A DNA stretch of 16,729 bases from a virus. Taxonomy: Duplodnaviria; Heunggongvirae; Uroviricota; Caudoviricetes. The notes beneath the pieces are model-generated. The model was not told the DNA's origin. It was given only the letters and a program-made list of their open reading frames with translations, and did not search any database. Position 1 is the first letter of the stretch, and every line of letters starts with the position of its first letter. The stretch lies in IMG/VR virus record IMGVR_UViG_2619619126_000011; one strand, given 5' to 3'. A program made the position numbers and the translations under genes. Shown piece by piece: positions 1,839 through 14,745 of this stretch.

Positions 1839-2897
1839 ATGAGTTTCCTTTCTGAACAAGACGTACAAAATTTAGTCATTAATAAAATGATCTTTCACGT
1901 TGTAGGTAAGAATCTTGAAGCACCGACACTTCTCAAAGAAATAAAACCAGTTCAGCATGTGGATTTTTTTCTTGAACGTATCAAATCTTCACTGAAAGGA
2001 AATCTTTTCACTTTTCTGGAGAATTCAAATACCGAAAGAATCCTGCGTATCATTAGAGATAAAGCAGATGCTGAAGCTAATTGTTTTACAGAACAATCGA
2101 AGCTACTGGCCAGTGATTTTCAGTCACACCATTCTAGCGGTAACACGAGTATGGGATGCTTTTTCTTATTTGAATTGGTTTCAGATAAGGAAAAATTCTA
2201 TGCAATTATAAAATACGATAATGAAGATGTGGTTCGTTATGTTCTTGACGAAAAGTTATCTGAAGAACAAATGCCTACTTTAGAAAGATTTCATGAAACT
2301 TTCGTAAAAAAAGCTGAGGCAATGCAAAAAATAGCGTTAATTCAACTTGATCCAAGTGGGAAAGGCGGGAAAGTTATTGTAAAAGACAGGAGTAAAAGAA
2401 CCAATATTTCAGGATATTTTAAAGGCTTCTTAAATGTTAAAAGAGTCAACTCTGAAATTGAACTTTGCAATAAGCTTATTGATGCGCTGAAAATAACCTT
2501 CAAAAGGCATAAAGAATTATTGCCAGAGTCAATTCAAAAAAGCGGCGTAAATAAAATATATGAAGTTTTAAGCAGAGCTGATTTCGAATATAATCCTGAA
2601 GATGCTTCTCCGTTATTGACCAGCATTTTTGGGCCGTTAGATGAAAAATCACCAATTCTCAACACATTCAAAACTCAAACAAAAAATGCTGGTATTGAAG
2701 GCGAATCCTTTACTATAAAAGCAGATGGCATTCATAAACCACCAAGACGAAAAATTGAAACTGCAGAAAGTGTAGTAATTAGTTATAATGAAGATGACCG
2801 TCCAGAAATAAGAAACTTAGATGATGGGCGAAAACAAATTATTGTTACTACTGCGAGGATTATTACTGATGACATCGATACTTCAAAAAATCGATGA
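1839..2897 (+). CDS. Hypothetical protein, 352 aa, soluble; gene A of the low-GC two-gene operon, with a tentative by-eye resemblance to the NdpA/YejK (NA37) nucleoid-associated protein family
   Basis: ATG at 1839 preceded by GGAG (1830-1833). The long ORF is about 30% G+C, sampled by hand on 60-nt lines. No catalytic motif recognised. The NdpA resemblance rests on short patterns such as G-F-LF and Y-FKG and is not a search result. Confidence 0.8.
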   Translation: MSFLSEQDVQNLVINKMIFHVVGKNLEAPTLLKEIKPVQHVDFFLERIKSSLKGNLFTFLENSNTERILRIIRDKADAEANCFTEQSKLLASDFQSHHSSGNTSMGCFFLFELVSDKEKFYAIIKYDNEDVVRYVLDEKLSEEQMPTLERFHETFVKKAEAMQKIALIQLDPSGKGGKVIVKDRSKRTNISGYFKGFLNVKRVNSEIELCNKLIDALKITFKRHKELLPESIQKSGVNKIYEVLSRADFEYNPEDASPLLTSIFGPLDEKSPILNTFKTQTKNAGIEGESFTIKADGIHKPPRRKIETAESVVISYNEDDRPEIRNLDDGRKQIIVTTARIITDDIDTSKNR

Positions 2898-5450: not shown

Positions 5451-6176
5451 TCACTTTTCCGACACAATACGACTGGAGGAATCGACAATCTGACGGACAA
5501 TATCCTGGTGCTTGTTCAGCTCACGCAGCGCGGCGCAGACTCGCTCCCACTTCTGGACATAACTTTTCGCCCGGCGCAGTTCGCGGTTTGCCATTTGCAG
5601 CGATGGTATAATCAGGTCATTGGCTCGCGTTTCAGTGAACGATGGTAGTGACTGCACAATGTCCCCCACAGTATCTGTTTTAATTTCTTCCTGTGTTGCC
5701 GCTTCCTGTACTGGTAACGCAACACCGGCTGGCTGAGGAAAGCCTTTACCAGGTGTTTTCACTACCGATACAACTTTCGGCTCTGCTGGTAAATTACCGT
5801 CCGGCAGGCAGTAACGAAATTTACCGTTCTGATTTACGCGAATCAGACGACCTTTGCTGATGGCCATAGCCAGCGATGAGTTCACCCTGCGGGAAGTAAT
5901 TCTGAATATCAGTGCAAGTTCATCAGCCGCTTTAGGGCCATGCTGTTCAATCGCCTCGATCAGCATTTGCGCTGTCACTTTAGAAGCCTGTGCTACAGAT
6001 GCGTTTTCGTCGGTTTGAGTCAACCACCACATCGGGCCCTTGTTATCAGCTTCCCCACGACGCTTCAGTTTCCACAGCTCGTTAATCGCCTCATCCCGGG
6101 TCATTCCCAGACGTGCTGCCACTTCCTGGGAAGAGGCTTTTCCCATTGCTTTCAGTGCGTCAAAAACGGTCTCCAT
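5451..6176 (-). CDS. Hypothetical prophage protein, 241 aa, with an N-terminal winged-helix-like segment; sits in the ydaW/nin-equivalent position
   Basis: ATG at 6176 preceded by a GGGAGG RBS, 22 bp after the ydaV stop. SSQEVAARLGMTRDEAINELWKLKRRG looks HTH-like. Confidence 0.75.
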   Translation of the reverse strand: METVFDALKAMGKASSQEVAARLGMTRDEAINELWKLKRRGEADNKGPMWWLTQTDENASVAQASKVTAQMLIEAIEQHGPKAADELALIFRITSRRVNSSLAMAISKGRLIRVNQNGKFRYCLPDGNLPAEPKVVSVVKTPGKGFPQPAGVALPVQEAATQEEIKTDTVGDIVQSLPSFTETRANDLIIPSLQMANRELRRAKSYVQKWERVCAALRELNKHQDIVRQIVDSSSRIVSEK

Positions 6177-6198
6177 TAAAATTTCCTCCCGGTAAAAA

Positions 6199-6945
6199 TT
6201 ACTTCTCAATTCCTGGCTGACCAACATTCGGGCGCCAGCTCTCCCAGTTAAAATTCACCCATCGCCCGCCGTTCATGGTCATCCGATCCATAATCCTCTC
6301 GCCGAGCAATGTTTTCATGGCCTCATAGTTCAGGTTTGTCAGCATCCCCACGCTGCGGATCGACGCTGTCCGGCGATCAACAATCTGGTGCAGTACCACC
6401 TGCTCGTTTTTTGTCTCGCGCTGAATGCCAATTTCATCAAGAACCAGCAGATCCACTTCGCACAGTTCCCGCAAAAATTTTTCGCCTGATTGCCCGTCGT
6501 CATAGCTGGCGTGTAGAGCACTCATAACATCAGCCACGGTAACCACAATCACTGTCTGACCGTTTTTCAGCAGGCGATTCCCGATAGCCGCCGCCAGATG
6601 GTTTTTTCCGGTACCAGGTTTTCCGCTAAACGCAAAATTTGTACACCCGACCATCAGTTCATCGGCGATGGATTTCGCCTGGCTCAACGCGTATCGCTGG
6701 CCGTCGTTCTGCACCTGGTAATTCGAAAACGAGCATTTGCGGTGCAACGGCTGGATGCCGGAGCGATTCAGAATTTTTTCCACCCGCAACTGACGATTCT
6801 GGCGATTGATCTCCTCGCAACGTTTCTGGCCTTCTGCAAGTTGCCACTCGCGCCACTCCGCCACCGTCCTGAATGGCGCGGTTACATGTGGCGGGGCCAG
6901 TCTGCGGATACGTTCCAGAACGCCGCCTGTCGCAATATTTTTCAT
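6199..6945 (-). CDS. ydaV: DnaC/IstB-like AAA+ helicase loader (Rac YdaV), 248 aa
   Basis: Walker A GKPGTGKNHLAAAIG and Walker B-like DLLVLDEIG. Length and position match K-12 Rac ydaV. GGGGG RBS upstream of ATG 6945. Confidence 0.9.
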   Translation of the reverse strand: MKNIATGGVLERIRRLAPPHVTAPFRTVAEWREWQLAEGQKRCEEINRQNRQLRVEKILNRSGIQPLHRKCSFSNYQVQNDGQRYALSQAKSIADELMVGCTNFAFSGKPGTGKNHLAAAIGNRLLKNGQTVIVVTVADVMSALHASYDDGQSGEKFLRELCEVDLLVLDEIGIQRETKNEQVVLHQIVDRRTASIRSVGMLTNLNYEAMKTLLGERIMDRMTMNGGRWVNFNWESWRPNVGQPGIEK

Positions 6946-7348
6946 GGTCAGTTACCCCCTGAAGCCTGGCGGGATCGCACTGTCCGGAAACGAGACAGTG
7001 TTAACCTGTCGGAGCAACGTCTCAGGCCGAACACTTTTCGGCGCGAACAAGCCCTGGTATTCATTGGCGATGCTGTGTCGAATCACCTGCTCAGGGGTAA
7101 AACCCTGCTGGCGGAATTTTTCCAGTTCCCGTATCGCCCCGTTAGCGCCCTGCTCCGTTCGAATCGGTTTTCGCAATGCCTGCCTGAACTGGACCCACTC
7201 ATTCCAGAGTGTTTCTGGCAACCAGTCGGGCAGAGCAATGGCCTCCGGCTCGAATTGTTTAGACGCTCGTTTTTGCCGAGGGGGATTTAGGGGGAGATCA
7301 GTATTTATATCTTCCTCTTCCTCTGGTAACGCTTTTTGATCCGTTTGT

Positions 7349-7367
7349 GTAACGCTGGCAGCGTTAC
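7349..7367. repeat. 19-bp palindrome GTAACGCTGGCAGCGTTAC (copy 1 of 3)
   Basis: Seen directly; lies inside the ydaU coding region. Confidence 0.8.
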
Positions 7368-7556
7368 CTTTTCGCTTCAGTTCGCGTATTTTTGTAACTC
7401 TCTCGTTTGTAACCGCCCGTTTTTTTCGAGCTTTTTCCGTTATGACGCTCAAAGTTTGGTAGTGAAAGCACTCCATCACTTTCGACCAGCCATCCAACCT
7501 GAATTAACGCATCAGCAAAACCAGCCATAAAAGTGATACGGTCTATTGCACTTTTT

Positions 7557-7575
7557 GTAACGCCTCGAGCGTTAC
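7557..7575. repeat. 19-bp palindrome GTAACGCCTCGAGCGTTAC (copy 2 of 3)
   Basis: Seen directly; lies inside the ydaU coding region. A half-site GCGTTACC follows at 7580-7587. Confidence 0.8.
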
Positions 7576-7748
7576 ACTCTGCGTTACCGTCTATCATTTG
7601 TTGATCCGCCCATGCCCAGAAGCGAATGACTTTCCCTAATGCGGCATCTGGATCAATATTCAGAATCTCAGCAAGCCTGAATATTTCCGGCTTATCCGGC
7701 GTAATAACTTCGAGCTTTATCCAGTTTGAAGCCATTTGTTTTCACCTT

Positions 7749-7767
7749 GTAACGCTCGCAGCGTTAC
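7749..7767. repeat. 19-bp palindrome GTAACGCTCGCAGCGTTAC (copy 3 of 3), immediately upstream of the ydaU RBS
   Basis: Seen directly; lies between the ydaT stop (7813) and the ydaU start (7735). Confidence 0.8.
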
Positions 7768-7812
7768 ATTTAACTGATACCGAACAAAACAGTTCGGTAC
7801 GATTAATTTCAA

Positions 7813-8235
7813 TCAATGCACTACGACAGAATCGCTAGGAGAACCGCCGCCGCTGAAATGTGCTTTACGGTAAACGGCCTGGACTGCATCATCATGCGCA
7901 TCAATTGCCGTACTCAGTGCATCCTGTGCCGCCAGTAATGCACGGCGTTCCAGGGTATCGAAGATGCAGAGTCGGTGACGCAGCTCGCGAGGAAGAATTG
8001 CCAGAACCGCAGGGATCAGTTTCTGAATTTTTTCCCTTTGCGCATTCGTTTCACCTTTCAACCAACGATGATAGATATTCTGCTGATTGTTCCAGTCCTT
8101 GCCTGGTACCAGGGGCAATTCGCCGCCCCCCTGGTGCAGATATTCTTCAGTAATTGCGTTAGCGACCCACGCCTGCCCTTTTTCGGCTGCCAGGGCTAAC
8201 AACACTGATTCGATGTGCTCATGCTTGATTTTCAT
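7813..8235 (-). CDS. ydaT: YdaT (cII-like prophage regulator/toxin), 140 aa
   Basis: MKIKHEHIESVLLALAAEKGQAWVANAITEEY..., with length and position as in K-12 Rac. Its start overlaps the upstream gene stop as ATGA. Confidence 0.85.
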   Translation of the reverse strand: MKIKHEHIESVLLALAAEKGQAWVANAITEEYLHQGGGELPLVPGKDWNNQQNIYHRWLKGETNAQREKIQKLIPAVLAILPRELRHRLCIFDTLERRALLAAQDALSTAIDAHDDAVQAVYRKAHFSGGGSPSDSVVVH

Positions 8236-8486
8236 GAATCAACTCCCATCAGCTTTTTCGTAGTAGTTTTATTTCTGCCAATAGTTAAAATTGCATCGGC
8301 AGAAAATAATCCGTTTGATGCATGAGCGATTTTTTCAGCGTAATATGTTTCGCCGGTATATTCTGTGCGAGGCAATTTTCCGTTATCCATCCATTTGTAG
8401 ATTGCTCTTTGGCTGACACCACAAACGTCGGCCACAACAGAAACGCGAACAGTTTTGATTACATCTTCAAGTGTTTTCTGGTTCAT
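8232..8486 (-). CDS. ydaS: Cro-like HTH regulator (positional YdaS equivalent), 84 aa from ATG 8486
   Basis: Divergent from racR and translationally coupled to ydaT. HTH segment VCGVSQRAIYKWMDNGKLP. Start 8486 has a GAGG RBS and leaves a 79-bp operator region; the ORF-track start at 8558 would leave only 7 bp. The gene symbol is positional; the length differs from what I recall for K-12 YdaS. Confidence 0.65.
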   Translation of the reverse strand: MNQKTLEDVIKTVRVSVVADVCGVSQRAIYKWMDNGKLPRTEYTGETYYAEKIAHASNGLFSADAILTIGRNKTTTKKLMGVDS

Positions 8487-8565
8487 ATCATCCTCACAAT
8501 GTGAACTTTGAGTACATGCTATAACAGAACTGACAGTACATTCAAGAGCGAATATCATTGAACTT
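8487..8565. promoter_or_regulatory. Divergent cro/racR control region with repeated AGTACAT motifs (OR-like)
   Basis: AGTACAT at 8511-8517 and 8535-8541, 24 bp apart, between the divergent start codons. Promoter elements not resolved. Confidence 0.35.
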
Positions 8566-8985
8566 ATGGTTCATGAAGATAAAGCGCGTAAAGAGTTCGC
8601 CAGTAGGCTTGCGCTAGCCTGTGAAAACGCTGGTTATGAACAACATGGAAGGCAGGCAGAAATTGCCCGTCGAATGAAATTAACACCAAAAGCGGTTAGC
8701 AAATGGTTTAATGGTGAAACAATTCCTCGCCGAGAGAAATTAAGGGAATTAGCAACACTCATTGGAACAACACCAACCTATCTTTTGGGAGAGGATACAG
8801 AAGAAAGTGGACAGATACGTTTCTATCAGGAGTTAAATCCAAGACAAAAAATCATCATTGACCTTCTGGACGAGCTCCCTGACAGTGAGACAGATGAACT
8901 TTTAAAAACTCTTGAGGAGAAAAAACAGAAGTACAATGCAATTTACGAAGAGTTAGCACGAAAGAAAAAACAAAAAGCCTCTTAA
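8566..8985 (+). CDS. racR: RacR prophage repressor (HTH, no recognisable S24 peptidase domain), 139 aa
   Basis: MVHEDKARKEFASRLALACENAGYEQHGRQAEIARRMKLTPKAVSKWFNGETIP has an HTH. It sits divergent from the cro/ydaT operon as in K-12 Rac. An in-frame stop at 8509-8511 forbids a longer N-terminus. Confidence 0.8.
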   Translation: MVHEDKARKEFASRLALACENAGYEQHGRQAEIARRMKLTPKAVSKWFNGETIPRREKLRELATLIGTTPTYLLGEDTEESGQIRFYQELNPRQKIIIDLLDELPDSETDELLKTLEEKKQKYNAIYEELARKKKQKAS

Positions 8986-9052
8986 ACCAGCATAAATCCG
9001 GTAGCGTCCCCCTCCGGGTTTGTGCTTCACTTTATCCCGTCTCATTTTTTTA

Positions 9053-9105
9053 TACATAAAATGTACTTAAAGTACTTTACAATGATGAACACAAAGTACA
9101 TTATA
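9053..9105. promoter_or_regulatory. OL-like operator/promoter candidate downstream of racR, with overlapping palindromes and AGTACAT-family motifs
   Basis: TACATAAAATGTA (9053-9065), GTACTTAAAGTAC (9063-9075), ATGTACT (9061-9067, reverse complement of AGTACAT) and AGTACAT (9095-9101), all upstream of the rightward ydaG-ydaF-kilR-racC-recET genes. Confidence 0.3.
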
Positions 9106-9272
9106 TACCTACCAACCCACCCCGCCCCACAGAACGCCGGGCAATACTTCGAGTTACCAGGCAGTGGTCAGGGGTTAAGTAGCCAGCCCGAGGCGTATGA
9201 ACATGACGGCGGGATTCAAATTTTGCAGTGCAGCAGTTAGTTCCGCCACCCGGCGTTAAGGGGATAGATAAG

Positions 9273-9407
9273 ATGGTGCATTACGAAGTAGTTCAGTATT
9301 TGATGGATTGTTGCGGTATCACTTACAACCAGGCTGTGCAGGCTTTACGCAGCAACGACTGGGATCTCTGGCAGGCAGAAGTCGCTATACGTAGCAACAA
9401 GATGTGA
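9273..9407 (+). CDS. ydaG: Small Rac prophage protein YdaG, 44 aa
   Basis: ATG 9273 preceded by AAGGGGAT, translating to MVHYEVVQYLMDCCGITYNQAVQALRSNDWDLWQAEVAIRSNKM. Below the ORF-track size cut-off. Matches K-12 Rac by position and size. Confidence 0.7.
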   Translation: MVHYEVVQYLMDCCGITYNQAVQALRSNDWDLWQAEVAIRSNKM

Positions 9408-9417
9408 GATTCGCAAA

Positions 9418-9573
9418 ATGCAAAAAATCGACCTCGGCAACAACGAATCCCTGGTGTGCGGCGTGTTCCCCAACCAGGATGGAACGTTCACTGCCATGAC
9501 GTATACCAAAAGCAAAACATTTAAAACCGAAACTGGTGCGCGCCGATGGTTGGAGAAGCACACAGTAAGCTAA
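9418..9573 (+). CDS. ydaF: Small Rac prophage protein YdaF, 51 aa
   Basis: Translating to MQKIDLGNNESLVCGVFPNQDGTFTAMTYTKSKTFKTETGARRWLEKHTVS. Its 3' end overlaps the sieB 3' end by 4 bp, convergently. The RBS is weak. Confidence 0.65.
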   Translation: MQKIDLGNNESLVCGVFPNQDGTFTAMTYTKSKTFKTETGARRWLEKHTVS

Positions 9574-10058
9574 CGATTAAAACGTCTACTCCTGCTGTTC
9601 CAGAATAACTTCATAAAATGGGAGTATTTTTCGGTGACGAGATAATAAGAACAGTTTGCGCTATCACTCTGATGTTGAATGATGCCCTTCCGTTCTAATT
9701 TTTTCATAACCGGGTTACGGCAAGGAGAAGTGATAATAAGATTTCCTGTTTTAAGGAAATCTTTAAATACAGCGATTTCTTTCTCAGATAAACGAAGCAA
9801 TACTCGTTGCTCTGGTAGTAATGAATAATGCTTTTGAATATGTGCTCGCAATCTTGTGAAGGAAATGGCGACCACGAAAGAAAAGGCAAAAACGATAATC
9901 TGAAAGAGCCAAGGTATTTCAGTATAAGCATTGAATGCGACAGTAAACTCTTTCGGTATCAGCCAGAGAGTGAGACCAAAAATGATAATCGTATACATAA
10001 GTCTTTCGAGTGGCTCGTTAGCAAAAAGTTTCAACAATGGAGTAAATACATCCAACAT
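9570..10058 (-). CDS. sieB: Superinfection exclusion protein SieB, 162 aa
   Basis: ATG at 10058 (MLDVFTPLLKLF...) followed by hydrophobic helices. Length matches K-12 SieB. The ORF-track N-terminal extension to 10181 is not supported. Confidence 0.85.
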   Translation of the reverse strand: MLDVFTPLLKLFANEPLERLMYTIIIFGLTLWLIPKEFTVAFNAYTEIPWLFQIIVFAFSFVVAISFTRLRAHIQKHYSLLPEQRVLLRLSEKEIAVFKDFLKTGNLIITSPCRNPVMKKLERKGIIQHQSDSANCSYYLVTEKYSHFMKLFWNSRSRRFNR

Positions 10059-10499
10059 ATCAATAACTCTCAACTGTAAGGGTATTGAAATGTTAACACA
10101 AGCTCTCGCTGTAGGGGTATAGCCGAGACCACCGAAGCCCGGAGGTGGTGAAATAAAACCGGGCACAACACGAAGGCGCATTTCCGATATCCATAAAGAG
10201 TCGGTCTTGTCTGTTAAATTTAAATGGTGGGAGTGCGCCTCCGGTTGTAAATAACGACATTGCTGTGTGTAGTCCTGGCGGCATCAGTTTTTTTCTTGAA
10301 GTTCGGCTGATGTCCGCCCTTTTTAAAGTGAATTTTGTGATGCGGTGAATGCGGCTAAGCGCACGTGGCACAGTTAAAAGTCATGTTAGTCCTTATTGGT
10401 TTGGGTGGGAAAGCCGACTGTAATTGTTAACTGGTTGCAGTCACCTGGAGGCACCAGGCACCGCATCAACAAAGTTCATTTGTAAAAATGGAGATAATT

Positions 10500-10721
10500 A
10501 TGATTGCACATCACTTCGGAACTGATGAAATACCACGTCAGTGTGTGACTCCTGGCGATTATGTTCTTCATGAAGGCCGGACATATATTGCCTCGGCAAA
10601 CAATATTAAAAAGCGAAAACTATATATTCGTAACCTGACCACAAAAACATGCATTACTGACCGCATGATTAAAGTCTTCCTCGGTCGTGATGGTTTACCT
10701 GTAAAGGCGGAGTCATGGTGA
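10500..10721 (+). CDS. kilR: KilR (FtsZ-inhibiting killing protein of Rac), 73 aa
   Basis: [35 protein letters not shown]..., ATG 10500 with a GGAG RBS. Confidence 0.85.
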
Positions 10722-10891
10722 TGACTAAGAAAATAAAATGTGCTTGCCACCTTTGCAAAAAAGACGTTGAAGAAAGCAAAGCTATTGAAAGAATGCTTCA
10801 CTTCATGCACGGGATTTTATCAAAAGACGAACCGAGAAAATATTGCAGTGAAGCTTGTGCCGAAAAAGACCAGATGGCACATGAACTTTAA
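10721..10891 (+). CDS. ydaE: YdaE, small zinc-ribbon-like protein, 56 aa
   Basis: ATG overlaps the kilR stop (TGATG) and translates to [56 protein letters not shown]. Below the ORF-track cut-off. Confidence 0.7.
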   Translation: MTKKIKCACHLCKKDVEESKAIERMLHFMHGILSKDEPRKYCSEACAEKDQMAHEL

Positions 10892-10965
10892 TTAATTGAC
10901 TATTCGAAACTGAATTTATGCCAGAAATGGCAGGTATTCGCTCAACCTTAATTAAGGAGAAAAAC

Positions 10966-11241
10966 ATGATTACCAATTATGAAGCCACTGTTGTAACTAC
11001 CGATGACATTGTTCACGAGGTGAATCTGGAAGGAAAGCGCATTGGCTACGTAATTAAAACAGAAAATAAAGAAACCCCATTCACTGTGGTTGATATCGAT
11101 GGTCCATCAGGCAACGTAAAAACACTTGATGAAGGTGTCAAAAAAATGTGCCTGGTGCATATCGGAAAGAATCTGCCCGCAGAAAAAAAAGCCGAATTTC
11201 TGGCAACTCTAATTGCAATGAAATTAAAAGGTGAAATCTGA
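10966..11241 (+). CDS. racC: RacC, 91 aa
   Basis: ATG 10966 preceded by an AAGGAG RBS (MITNYEATVVTTDDIVHEV...). Length and position as in K-12 Rac. Confidence 0.85.
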   Translation: MITNYEATVVTTDDIVHEVNLEGKRIGYVIKTENKETPFTVVDIDGPSGNVKTLDEGVKKMCLVHIGKNLPAEKKAEFLATLIAMKLKGEI

Positions 11242-11246
11242 AAGAA

Positions 11247-11271
11247 ATAGCCTGCGTATGGCGCAGGCTAT
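11247..11271 (+). other. Strong hairpin between racC and recE (10-bp stem ATAGCCTGCG / CGCAGGCTAT, 5-nt loop)
   Basis: Perfect inverted repeat starting 6 bp after the racC stop. No U-tract follows, so it is not a canonical intrinsic terminator; it may be an attenuator, an RNA stability element or a protein site. Confidence 0.35.
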
Positions 11272-11342
11272 GAACAGTGTGTATCCGGCAAGATCATTCA
11301 CTGAACAAAACGAATTTTAATCTGAGTTGAGGTTAAAAAACA

Positions 11343-13943
11343 ATGAGCACAAAACCACTCTTCCTGTTACGGAAAGCGAAAAAATCATCCGGTGAACCTG
11401 ACGTCGTCCTGTGGGCAAGCAACGATTTTGAATCGACCTGTGCCACTCTGGACTACCTGATCGTTAAGTCAGGTAAAAAACTGAGCAGCTATTTTAAAGC
11501 TGTTGCCACGAATTTTCCTGTCGTTAATGACCTGCCCGCTGAAGGTGAGATCGATTTTACCTGGAGTGAACGCTATCAACTCAGCAAAGACTCCATGACA
11601 TGGGAACTAAAACCGGGAGCAGCACCAGACAACGCTCACTATCAAGGCAATACCAACGTCAACGGCGAAGACATGACTGAGATTGAGGAGAATATGCTAC
11701 TCCCAATTTCTGGCCAGGAACTGCCCATTCGTTGGCTTGCTCAACACGGCAGCGAAAAACCGGTAACGCACGTTTCACGCGACGGACTCCAGGCATTACA
11801 CATTGCTCGGGCTGAAGAACTACCGGCTGTTACTGCCCTGGCTGTTTCCCACAAAACCAGCCTGCTCGACCCGCTGGAAATTCGCGAACTCCACAAACTG
11901 GTTCGTGACACTGACAAAGTTTTCCCTAATCCTGGTAATTCAAACCTGGGACTGATAACTGCTTTTTTCGAAGCATACCTGAACGCTGACTACACCGATC
12001 GAGGACTGCTGACAAAAGAGTGGATGAAGGGTAATCGTGTTTCACACATCACTCGCACGGCTTCCGGTGCTAATGCTGGCGGCGGAAACCTCACCGATCG
12101 CGGCGAAGGTTTCGTACACGATCTGACGTCACTGGCGCGCGACGTAGCCACTGGCGTACTGGCCCGTTCAATGGATCTGGACATCTATAACCTTCATCCG
12201 GCACACGCTAAACGCATTGAGGAAATTATCGCTGAAAATAAACCGCCCTTTTCTGTTTTCCGCGACAAATTCATCACCATGCCTGGCGGGCTGGATTATT
12301 CCCGCGCCATCGTGGTTGCGTCCGTAAAAGAAGCACCAATTGGGATCGAGGTCATCCCCGCGCACGTCACTGAATATCTGAACAAAGCACTGACTGAAAC
12401 CGATCATGCCAACCCTGATCCGGAAATCGTGGATATTGCCTGCGGTCGCTCCTCTGCCCCGATGCCGCAGCGAGTAACAGAAGAAGGAAAACAGGATGAT
12501 GAAGAAAAACCGCAACCATCTGGAACAACGGCAGTTGAACAGGGAGAGGCTGAAACAATGGAACCGGACGCAACTGAACATCATCAGGACACGCAGCCGC
12601 TGGATGCTCAGTCACAGGTAAATTCTGTTGATGCGAAATATCAGGAACTGCGGGCAGAACTCCATGAAGCCCGGAAAAACATTCCATCAAAAAATCCTGT
12701 CGATGCCGATAAATTGCTTGCTGCATCACGTGGTGAATTTGTTGACGGAATTAGCGACCCGAACGATCCGAAATGGGTAAAGGGGATCCAGACTCGCGAT
12801 TGTGTGTACCAGAACCAGCCAGAAACGGAAAAAACCAGCCCAGATATGAATCAACCTGAGCCAGTAGTGCAACAGGAACCGGAAATAGCCTGCAATGCCT
12901 GCGGCCAGACTGGCGGGGGTAACTGCCCTGACTGTGGGGCGGTGATGGGCGACGCAACATACCAGGAAACATTCGATGAAGAGAGTCAGGTTGAAGCTAA
13001 GGAAAATGATCCGGAGGAAATGGAAGGCGCTGAACATCCGCACAATGAGAATGCTGGCAGCGATCCGCATCGCGATTGCAGTGATGAAACTGGCGAAGTC
13101 GCAGATCCCGTAATCGTAGAAGACATAGAGCCAGGTATTTATTACGGAATTTCGAATGAGAATTACCACGCGGGTCCCGGTATCAGTAAGTCTCAGCTCG
13201 ATGACATTGCTGATACTCCGGCACTATATTTGTGGCGTAAAAATGCCCCCGTGGACACCACAAAGACAAAAACGCTCGATTTAGGAACTGCTTTCCACTG
13301 CCGGGTACTTGAACCGGAAGAATTCAGTAACCGCTTTATCGTAGCACCTGAATTTAACCGCCGTACAAACGCCGGAAAAGAAGAAGAGAAAGCGTTTCTG
13401 ATGGAATGCGCAAGCACAGGAAAAACGGTTATCACTGCGGAAGAAGGCCGGAAAATTGAACTCATGTATCAAAGCGTTATGGCTTTGCCGCTGGGGCAAT
13501 GGCTTGTTGAAAGCGCCGGACACGCTGAATCATCAATTTACTGGAAAGATCCTGAAACAGGAATTTTGTGTCGGTGCCGTCCGGACAAAATTATCCCTGA
13601 ATTTCACTGGATCATGGACGTGAAAACTACGGCGGATATTCAACGATTCAAAACCGCTTATTACGACTACCGCTATCACGTTCAGGATGCATTCTACAGT
13701 GACGGTTATGAAGCACAGTTTGGAGTGCAGCCAACTTTCGTTTTTCTGGTTGCCAGCACAACTATTGAATGCGGACGTTATCCGGTTGAAATTTTCATGA
13801 TGGGCGAAGAAGCAAAACTGGCAGGTCAACAGGAATATCACCGCAATCTGCGAACCCTGTCTGACTGCCTGAATACCGATGAATGGCCAGCTATTAAGAC
13901 ATTATCACTGCCCCGCTGGGCTAAGGAATATGCAAATGACTAA
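11343..13943 (+). CDS. recE: RecE (exonuclease VIII), full length, 866 aa
   Basis: [30 protein letters not shown]... Length matches K-12 RecE. It sits directly upstream of recT with the stop overlapping the recT start. Confidence 0.95.
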
Positions 13944-14745
13944 GCAACCACCAATCGCAAAAGCCGATCTGCAAAAAACTCAGGGAAACCGTGCACCAGC
14001 AGCAGTTAAAAATAGCGACGTGATTAGTTTTATTAACCAGCCATCAATGAAAGAGCAACTGGCAGCAGCTCTTCCACGCCATATGACGGCTGAACGTATG
14101 ATCCGTATCGCCACCACAGAAATTCGTAAAGTTCCGGCGTTAGGAAACTGTGACACTATGAGTTTTGTCAGTGCGATCGTACAGTGTTCACAGCTCGGAC
14201 TTGAGCCAGGTAGCGCCCTCGGTCATGCATATTTACTGCCTTTTGGTAATAAAAACGAAAAGAGCGGTAAAAAGAACGTTCAGCTAATCATTGGCTATCG
14301 CGGCATGATTGATCTGGCTCGCCGTTCTGGTCAAATCGCCAGCCTGTCAGCCCGTGTTGTCCGTGAAGGTGACGAGTTTAGCTTCGAATTTGGCCTTGAT
14401 GAAAAGTTAATACACCGCCCGGGAGAAAACGAAGATGCCCCGGTTACCCACGTCTATGCTGTCGCAAGACTGAAAGACGGAGGTACTCAGTTTGAAGTTA
14501 TGACGCGCAAACAGATTGAGCTGGTGCGCAGCCTGAGTAAAGCTGGTAATAACGGGCCGTGGGTAACTCACTGGGAAGAAATGGCAAAGAAAACGGCTAT
14601 TCGTCGCCTGTTCAAATATCTGCCCGTATCAATTGAGATCCAGCGTGCAGTATCAATGGATGAAAAGGAACCACTGACAATCGATCCTGCAGATTCCTCT
14701 GTATTAACCGGGGAATACAGTGTAATTGATAATTCAGAGGAATAA
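13936..14745 (+). CDS. recT: RecT single-strand annealing recombinase, 269 aa
   Basis: [59 protein letters not shown]... The ATG lies within AATGACTAA, overlapping the recE stop. Confidence 0.95.

Follow-up and report, generated by a model that had tools for sequence, protein, structure and literature searches.

In a Rac-like lambdoid prophage of Escherichia coli, the gene for the replication initiator has very probably been inactivated by a real, vertically inherited insertion that extended a run of six As on its coding strand to seven, a conclusion drawn with high confidence from comparison of the prophage with its relatives. The window, meaning the whole 16,729-nucleotide stretch of IMG/VR virus record IMGVR_UViG_2619619126_000011 that was analysed, holds the gene in two overlapping frames. 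An earlier sequence-only reading of this DNA had proposed that the split reflects a true inactivating mutation, a homopolymer sequencing error or low-level slippage-dependent expression. The first of these is now supported, as the A7 allele is shared by many public records, lies on a single haplotype and is called 'frameshifted' by PGAP. The frameshift as such is already known, since public annotation flags the gene as a pseudogene, and it represents ordinary, lineage-specific prophage decay. As a typical step in prophage domestication the lesion is of little weight by itself; a set of conserved DNA dyads and the DnaT-like architecture of the intact protein are the parts worth following up.

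Lesion and gene layout

The broken gene occupies 6952..7735 on the minus strand, in the position of ydaU, and is annotated 'frameshifted' by PGAP. Its lesion is a T7 run on the plus strand at 7420-7426, flanked as CCCG-TTTTTTT-CGAGC, which reads as A7 on the coding minus strand. ORF1 (7364..7735, minus strand) extends from an ATG at 7735 to a TAA at 7364-7366 and specifies 123 amino acids, namely a native stretch of 105 residues, which is the predicted DNA-binding domain at the N-terminus, and 18 out-of-frame residues. A second frame, +1 relative to ORF1, is open from approximately 7497 to a stop at 6952-6954; its portion beyond the run (6952..7419, minus strand) carries native residues 106-260 and the stop codon, that is, a basic/acidic linker followed by a DnaT-CTD-like domain. 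Across the run the codons are TCG AAA AAA ACG in frame 0 and CGA AAA AAA CGG in the downstream frame, and deletion of one A yields a single ORF of 260 codons and 260 amino acids. The extra A falls in codon 105, where the linker begins, and in the intact allele the corresponding A6 encodes the Lys-Lys of a conserved SKKRA motif. The run sits between two dyads of the form GTAACGC-N5-GCGTTAC, and the premature TAA of ORF1 is itself the G-TAA-C of a dyad arm. Inspection by eye showed no Shine-Dalgarno-like sequence before candidate internal starts of the +1-frame part.

After repair, the protein aligns with PHROG 2509, 'replication initiation protein', across residues 1-260 and profile positions 1-277 of 277 (E 5e-87). 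Each fragment also matches this family separately, one its N-terminal part and the other its C-terminal part, and because these matches cover successive parts of the profile the two frames represent one truly split gene rather than two chance ORFs. The earlier claim that loss of one base from the A7 run reconstitutes a 260-codon ORF was thus right in both its coordinates and its description. Likewise, the ydaV-like gene directly downstream (6199..6945, minus strand), which encodes a helicase-loader ATPase of the DnaC/IstB type, proved intact as had been stated: its product is WP_000788982.1, identical in every relative examined.

The prophage

The window belongs to a Rac-type E. coli prophage and is nearly identical to the corresponding regions of strains 300033 (NZ_CM128588.1, 2663901-2680629) and CB209, with about seven single-base differences from 300033. 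Six single-base differences of the window (8345, 9857, 12919, 12938, 14727, 14759) were not seen in any of the 11 closest public relatives, so that its source is closely related to 300033 but is none of the public records in this comparison. The gene order begins intR, xisR, rcbA, ralR, recT, recE, racC, ydaE and kilR and continues with sieB, ydaF, cI-like and cro-like HTH genes, ydaT, the broken gene, ydaV, DUF1627, DUF977 and Q, among others. In 300033 the prophage is approximately 49 kb long and includes lysis, terminase, capsid, tail and tail-fibre genes together with a DUF4055 protein in the portal position; most of its genes other than the initiator, those for head, tail and lysis included, are annotated as intact. 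Apart from the frameshift, the visible lesions are IS421, inserted at the left of the window, and two genes present as partial copies, ynaK and a tail-fibre assembly gene. The IS421 (IS4-like) element spans window positions 1 to about 1330, with its transposase CDS at 164-1276 on the minus strand, and adjoins a hok/gef gene; 300033, CB209, AHB5 and a few others carry it, while most relatives are without it, their matches starting at about 1309-1331.

Between ydaT and the initiator gene, at 7778-7799, lies a hairpin with a perfect 8-bp stem and a 6-nt loop (TACCGAAC-AAAACA-GTTCGGTA), which also occurs in phage vB_EcoS-673R7 and may be regulatory or terminator-like. A promoter and terminator scan around the initiator gene gave nothing better than shuffled controls.

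Intact relatives

Intact alleles of the gene are common and are represented by WP_021529524.1 (260 aa) and WP_001326319.1 (262 aa). The records of phages vB_EcoS-673R7, -613R10 and -666R9 likewise contain an intact, 95% identical gene annotated 'DNA replication protein O'. Across the Enterobacterales, in genera that include Citrobacter, Salmonella, Klebsiella, Serratia and Yersinia, each homologue is one ORF of 255-315 aa. The sequence-only reading would have been contradicted had homologues also carried two separate genes here, and they do not. The frameshift strikes the near-invariant motif HNGxSSKKRA(V/L)TNxRV, and at homologous loci of other species that keep this motif AAA AAA stands in frame, as A6, in all 16, with A7 in none. 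Comparison of these sequences indicates that the split, two-ORF layout is not a feature of the family.

Variants of 374-380 aa (P0029, P0046 and about 45 similar clusters) are common and carry a linker insertion of roughly 115 residues (...RIDIVVTDRNGVRCGIELD...) that separates the poly-Glu tract from the DnaT-like domain. The N-terminal domain has homologues of 39-52% identity in MAGs labelled Pirellulaceae, Pirellula and Verrucomicrobiaceae (L039 and L041-L043) and assigned to Planctomycetota and Verrucomicrobiota; these matches could reflect either contamination or real transfer.

Domain architecture of the intact protein

The label 'ydaU' holds only in part. The gene stands in the ydaU position, and the C-terminal half of its product resembles K-12 YdaU, residues 138-260 aligning by BLASTP with residues 163-285 at 79% identity over 123 residues. 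The N-terminal ~137 residues, on the other hand, are unrelated, showing no similarity to K-12 YdaU by BLASTP. DUF1376 (Pfam PF07120) was not found, no Pfam family matched either fragment at E<=0.01, and neither Pfam nor NCBIfam yielded anything useful for the two fragments or the repaired protein beyond a 19-residue match to the DnaT tail. The name is nevertheless in use for this protein: a 98% identical allele is named ydaU in GenBank MN652886, and PGAP calls some intact alleles 'phage replication initiator YdaU family protein'.

Residues 167-260 resemble the C-terminal domain of DnaT in phmmer searches (PDB 2RU8, E 5e-4; 9ZBT, E 1e-3), the alignment extending to the last residue and including a shared IPPGFRG end, and a homologue of 54% identity (P0120) contains PF17948, the DnaT-like ssDNA-binding domain. 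These similarities argue, with moderate confidence, for homology between the C-terminal domain and the ssDNA-binding domain at the C-terminus of DnaT (PF17948). In DnaT itself this domain forms filaments on ssDNA and is preceded by an acidic linker (PMC13377028). In an AlphaFold2 model based on 25 homologues, residues 11-96 form a confident N-terminal domain of helices and a beta hairpin, residues 97-159 are disordered and hold both codon 105 and the poly-Glu tract, and three confident C-terminal helices follow at 176-225. Foldseek comparison of this model with the PDB returned no significant match, the best being winged-helix regulators at E~0.4; from its predicted secondary structure the N-terminal domain may be winged-helix-like. 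As judged by these alignments, the protein called ydaU here is a mosaic that joins an apparently exchangeable N-terminal specificity domain to a DnaT-like C-terminal domain.

Conserved dyads in and around the gene

Three perfect 19-bp dyads, GTAACGC-N5-GCGTTAC, lie in the window, where 0.04 would be expected by chance. One is non-coding and stops 13 bp short of the start codon, on its upstream side (7749..7767), one lies in the region coding for the N-terminal domain (7557..7575, gene position +160) and one in the region coding for the linker (7349..7367, gene position +368). The spacer is 5 nt, and the pattern with a 4-nt spacer has no match. Of 23 loci from other genera, 19 have dyads at the homologous positions, up to three per locus (loci with dyads are L017, L018, L022-L039 and L044, so that one of the MAG loci above, L039, is among them). 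These positions are approximately -32 to -44 (non-coding), +148 or +160, and +357 to +412 of the gene, and no dyad occurs elsewhere in the 1.5-kb flanks of the homologous loci. Further, the arms are near-invariant, with no more than one mismatch, and the 5-nt spacer varies freely. In 38 cases the dyad is read in the phase xGT AAC GCx ... xGC GTT ACx, giving the peptide 'NAxxVT', and in 4 cases in the other phase, GTA ACG C..; the residues that flank the dyad codons vary only among those with NGT and NGC codons. K-12 ydaU, which has another N-terminal domain, is without the dyads. Taken together, this pattern of conservation points to a constraint at the level of DNA that shapes the 'NAxxVT' motifs of the protein, and the dyads are probably initiator-binding sites, serving as origin, operator or both. 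They thereby provide testable candidate origin or initiator-binding sites for a widespread group of enterobacterial prophages.

Probable consequences of the frameshift

In the intact protein, the N-terminal domain of about 100 residues, with its helices and beta hairpin, presumably recognises specific sites in DNA; a disordered linker, basic and then acidic, would connect it to the three-helix C-terminal domain, the homologue of the ssDNA-binding domain of the primosomal protein DnaT. By analogy with DnaT, the N-terminal domain would find the origin and the DnaT-like domain would ready ssDNA for the loading of DnaB by the DnaC-like YdaV. Replication slippage in the homopolymer could have converted A6 to A7, and translation of the A7 allele would then produce the N-terminal domain with 18 aberrant residues and a stop, leaving the DnaT-like domain unattached. 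Because the frameshift parts the N-terminal domain from the DnaT-like domain, the initiator of the A7 prophage is most likely dead. What the sequences show is the lesion, the way it is inherited and the homology of the domains, whereas loss of function and the roles of the domains are inferred. The A7 prophage would, by the same inference, be unable to start its own replication. No further decay of the initiator gene was seen in A7 strains.

It is also conceivable that the gene is down-tuned instead of dead, the A7 run permitting transcriptional slippage or a +1 slip of tRNA-Lys to furnish a useful fraction of full-length initiator, although this is unlikely. A transcript that lost one A, or a +1 tRNA-Lys slip, would restore the exact wild-type SKKRAV, and partial rescue of frameshift mutations in A/T runs by transcriptional slippage is known (PMC1088944). 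The two-ORF layout, however, is not conserved, as the 16 motif-keeping loci attest, and A7 is limited to one haplotype; as the split layout is not a family feature, the main argument for programmed recoding is gone. Nor is the run well suited to the purpose. In a large share of bacterial genomes, coding regions show evident selection against A/T runs from about 9 nt (PMC1088944), and indel bypass by E. coli RNA polymerase is put at 7 or more Ts and still more As (PMC6260861), so that A7 lies at or below the thresholds given for slippage. The classic -1 slip on A-AAA-AAG would lead to the wrong frame, and no Shine-Dalgarno-like stimulator, rare codon or stop codon was seen by eye beside the run. 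A trace of full-length product from a +1 slip or from loss of an A in the transcript is possible, but recoded expression by design is unlikely, and the earlier suggestion of slippage-dependent expression as a designed feature finds no support, given A6 in the homologues and a run too short for efficient slippage.

Co-option of the 123-aa product is decidedly unlikely. The N-terminal domain with its 18-residue tail, bound to the dyads, would in that case act as a dominant-negative blocker of the origin, which might silence the origin of the resident prophage, exclude superinfecting Rac-like phages of the same initiator-origin specificity, or both, and could help explain why the allele has lasted in a successful ExPEC lineage, where hundreds of contigs carry it.

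Inheritance of the A7 allele

Whether the insertion was inherited, recurs, or was introduced in sequencing can be judged from its distribution. An 81-nt probe centred on the run, searched against 5426 complete E. coli genomes, found its allele in 66, as exact A7 in 14 records and in other form (nearly all A6) in 52. The A7 records originate from the USA, Japan, Australia, Germany, Mozambique and elsewhere and from different laboratories; one of them, Ecol_316, is a PacBio assembly (doi 10.1101/111914), and two, THO-008 and STN0717-11, are ST393 (PMC8709547), these being the only strain names for which the literature yielded a sequence type. More broadly, the exact 123-aa product is present on 323 public contigs in NCBI, ENA, JGI and Logan, including that of strain KTE50, compared in the same archives with at least 1000 contigs for the intact 262-aa form and 116 for the 260-aa form. 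PGAP calls the identical sequence a 'frameshifted' pseudogene in 300033, CB209, Ecol_316, EC-1639 and MINF_7C. An alignment of 12 sequences (six A7, six A6) over window positions 5451-14200 further showed that two recE SNPs, 5-6 kb from the run, are 12388C and 13545A in 6 of 6 A7 sequences and T and G in 6 of 6 A6 sequences. Tied in this manner to two distant SNPs, A7 marks one haplotype, and the simplest reading to which these 12 sequences and two linked SNPs point is that it arose once.

A phase-variable contingency locus, in which reversible switching between A6 and A7 toggles replication of the prophage, is very improbable when set against this distribution. The run does lie in an indel-prone stretch. 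Close by, at 7312..7323 on the minus strand, is a hexamer repeat, TTCCTC x2 (GAGGAA, Glu-Glu, on the coding strand), that near-identical prophages carry in 2 or 3 copies; its copy number varies on A6 and A7 backgrounds alike and is therefore homoplasic. Further, strain 1919D3 carries a G3 to G2 deletion 3 nt from the run in the same allele, likewise annotated 'frameshifted'. Yet A7 is found on a single haplotype (6/6 versus 0/6) instead of being scattered among strains, and 6-7 nt is short for a phase-variable run. Recurrent switching between A6 and A7, an idea raised by the homoplasic hexamer, was dropped, as the linked SNPs favour one origin of A7. Among other alleles, P0046 and P0010 have longer Glu runs.

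The remaining explanation, an error of sequencing or assembly that conceals a true A6 and an intact gene, has a negligible chance of being correct and is excluded for practical purposes: homopolymer indels are indeed a frequent type of long-read error, and one noisy public contig of this same region (L021) has 8 of them in 3 kb, but A7 appears in 14 independently assembled complete records, one of them by PacBio, and its product on 323 contigs across four archives, its linkage to two SNPs 5-6 kb from the run is without exception, comparison with 11 relatives reveals no indel private to the window, and only one feature in about 56 kb of strain 300033 is called 'frameshifted'. The homopolymer error that the sequence-only reading had entertained is accordingly refuted.

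Repeated breakage and its implications

In other strains the same allele has been broken independently of the vertically inherited A7 insertion. Besides the deletion in 1919D3 described above, strain GPEC206-621 (NZ_CM142770.1, locus L011 179-952) has a deletion that joins residues 1-136 of the initiator to YdaV's C-terminal half; the fusion, annotated 'ATP-binding protein', is without both the DnaT-like domain and the Walker A motif of the loader, and NZ_LR881940.1 probably carries the same deletion. The database also holds several truncated clusters of the initiator protein. Elsewhere in these prophages, racC is 'frameshifted' in KE55 by an A7 to A6 change at 11140 (window 11140-11146), and in LH10-b-1 a T7 to T6 change at 1964 (window 1964-1970) shortens the call for a nucleoid-associated protein gene. 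Repeated inactivation of this kind is the usual pattern of prophage decay. An apparent second-site suppressor, P0117, in which A7 is followed 17 codons on by a -1 deletion, was set aside as assembly noise, its sole contig being the noisy L021.

The A7 allele may serve as a marker of its carrier clade, of which at least two members are ST393, and it predicts that an otherwise nearly complete Rac-like prophage will fail to replicate on induction.

Comparison with known systems

The broken gene resembles the A/T-run rescue described by Baranov et al. 2005 (PMC1088944) in that a broken ORF has frames that can be rejoined at a mononucleotide run. It differs in that the run is here 7 nt and not 9 or more, and the layout is not conserved in homologues.

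A second system for comparison is the ydaU-ydaV pair of the K-12 Rac prophage (b1359-b1360), whose ydaU occupies the same slot after ydaT and before the DnaC-like ydaV, shares the C-terminal 123 residues at 79% identity and lies in the same prophage setting of intR, xisR, recET, kilR and sieB. The two differ in that the N-terminal ~137 residues of the present protein are unrelated and give no DUF1376 match, and in that the K-12 gene is without the GTAACGC dyads. Further, K-12 ydaU is intact in a 23-kb remnant, whereas the gene examined here is broken in a nearly complete prophage of about 49 kb.

A further parallel is offered by phage lambda, in which the two-domain initiator O, with ori inside the O gene as a tight array of four sites, is followed by the loader P. 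The prophage likewise has a two-domain initiator followed by a helicase-loader gene, with conserved 19-bp dyads inside the initiator CDS, near and within the part for the inter-domain linker. Its sites, however, are approximately 200 bp apart instead of forming a tight array of four, one of them is upstream of the gene, and the partner is DnaC-like and not P-like; profile and protein searches of the initiator detected no sequence similarity to lambda O.

Finally, the ydaU-like/ydaV pair parallels the dnaT-dnaC operon of the host. E. coli DnaT shares the C-terminal domain with its ...PDSxIPPGFRG end, has an acidic linker ahead of it and is followed by a DnaC-family gene. The prophage protein differs in having another N-terminal domain, in the modest E-values of the similarity (5e-4) and in giving no Pfam match of its own at E<=0.01, and its role would be origin-specific initiation rather than the restart of replication.
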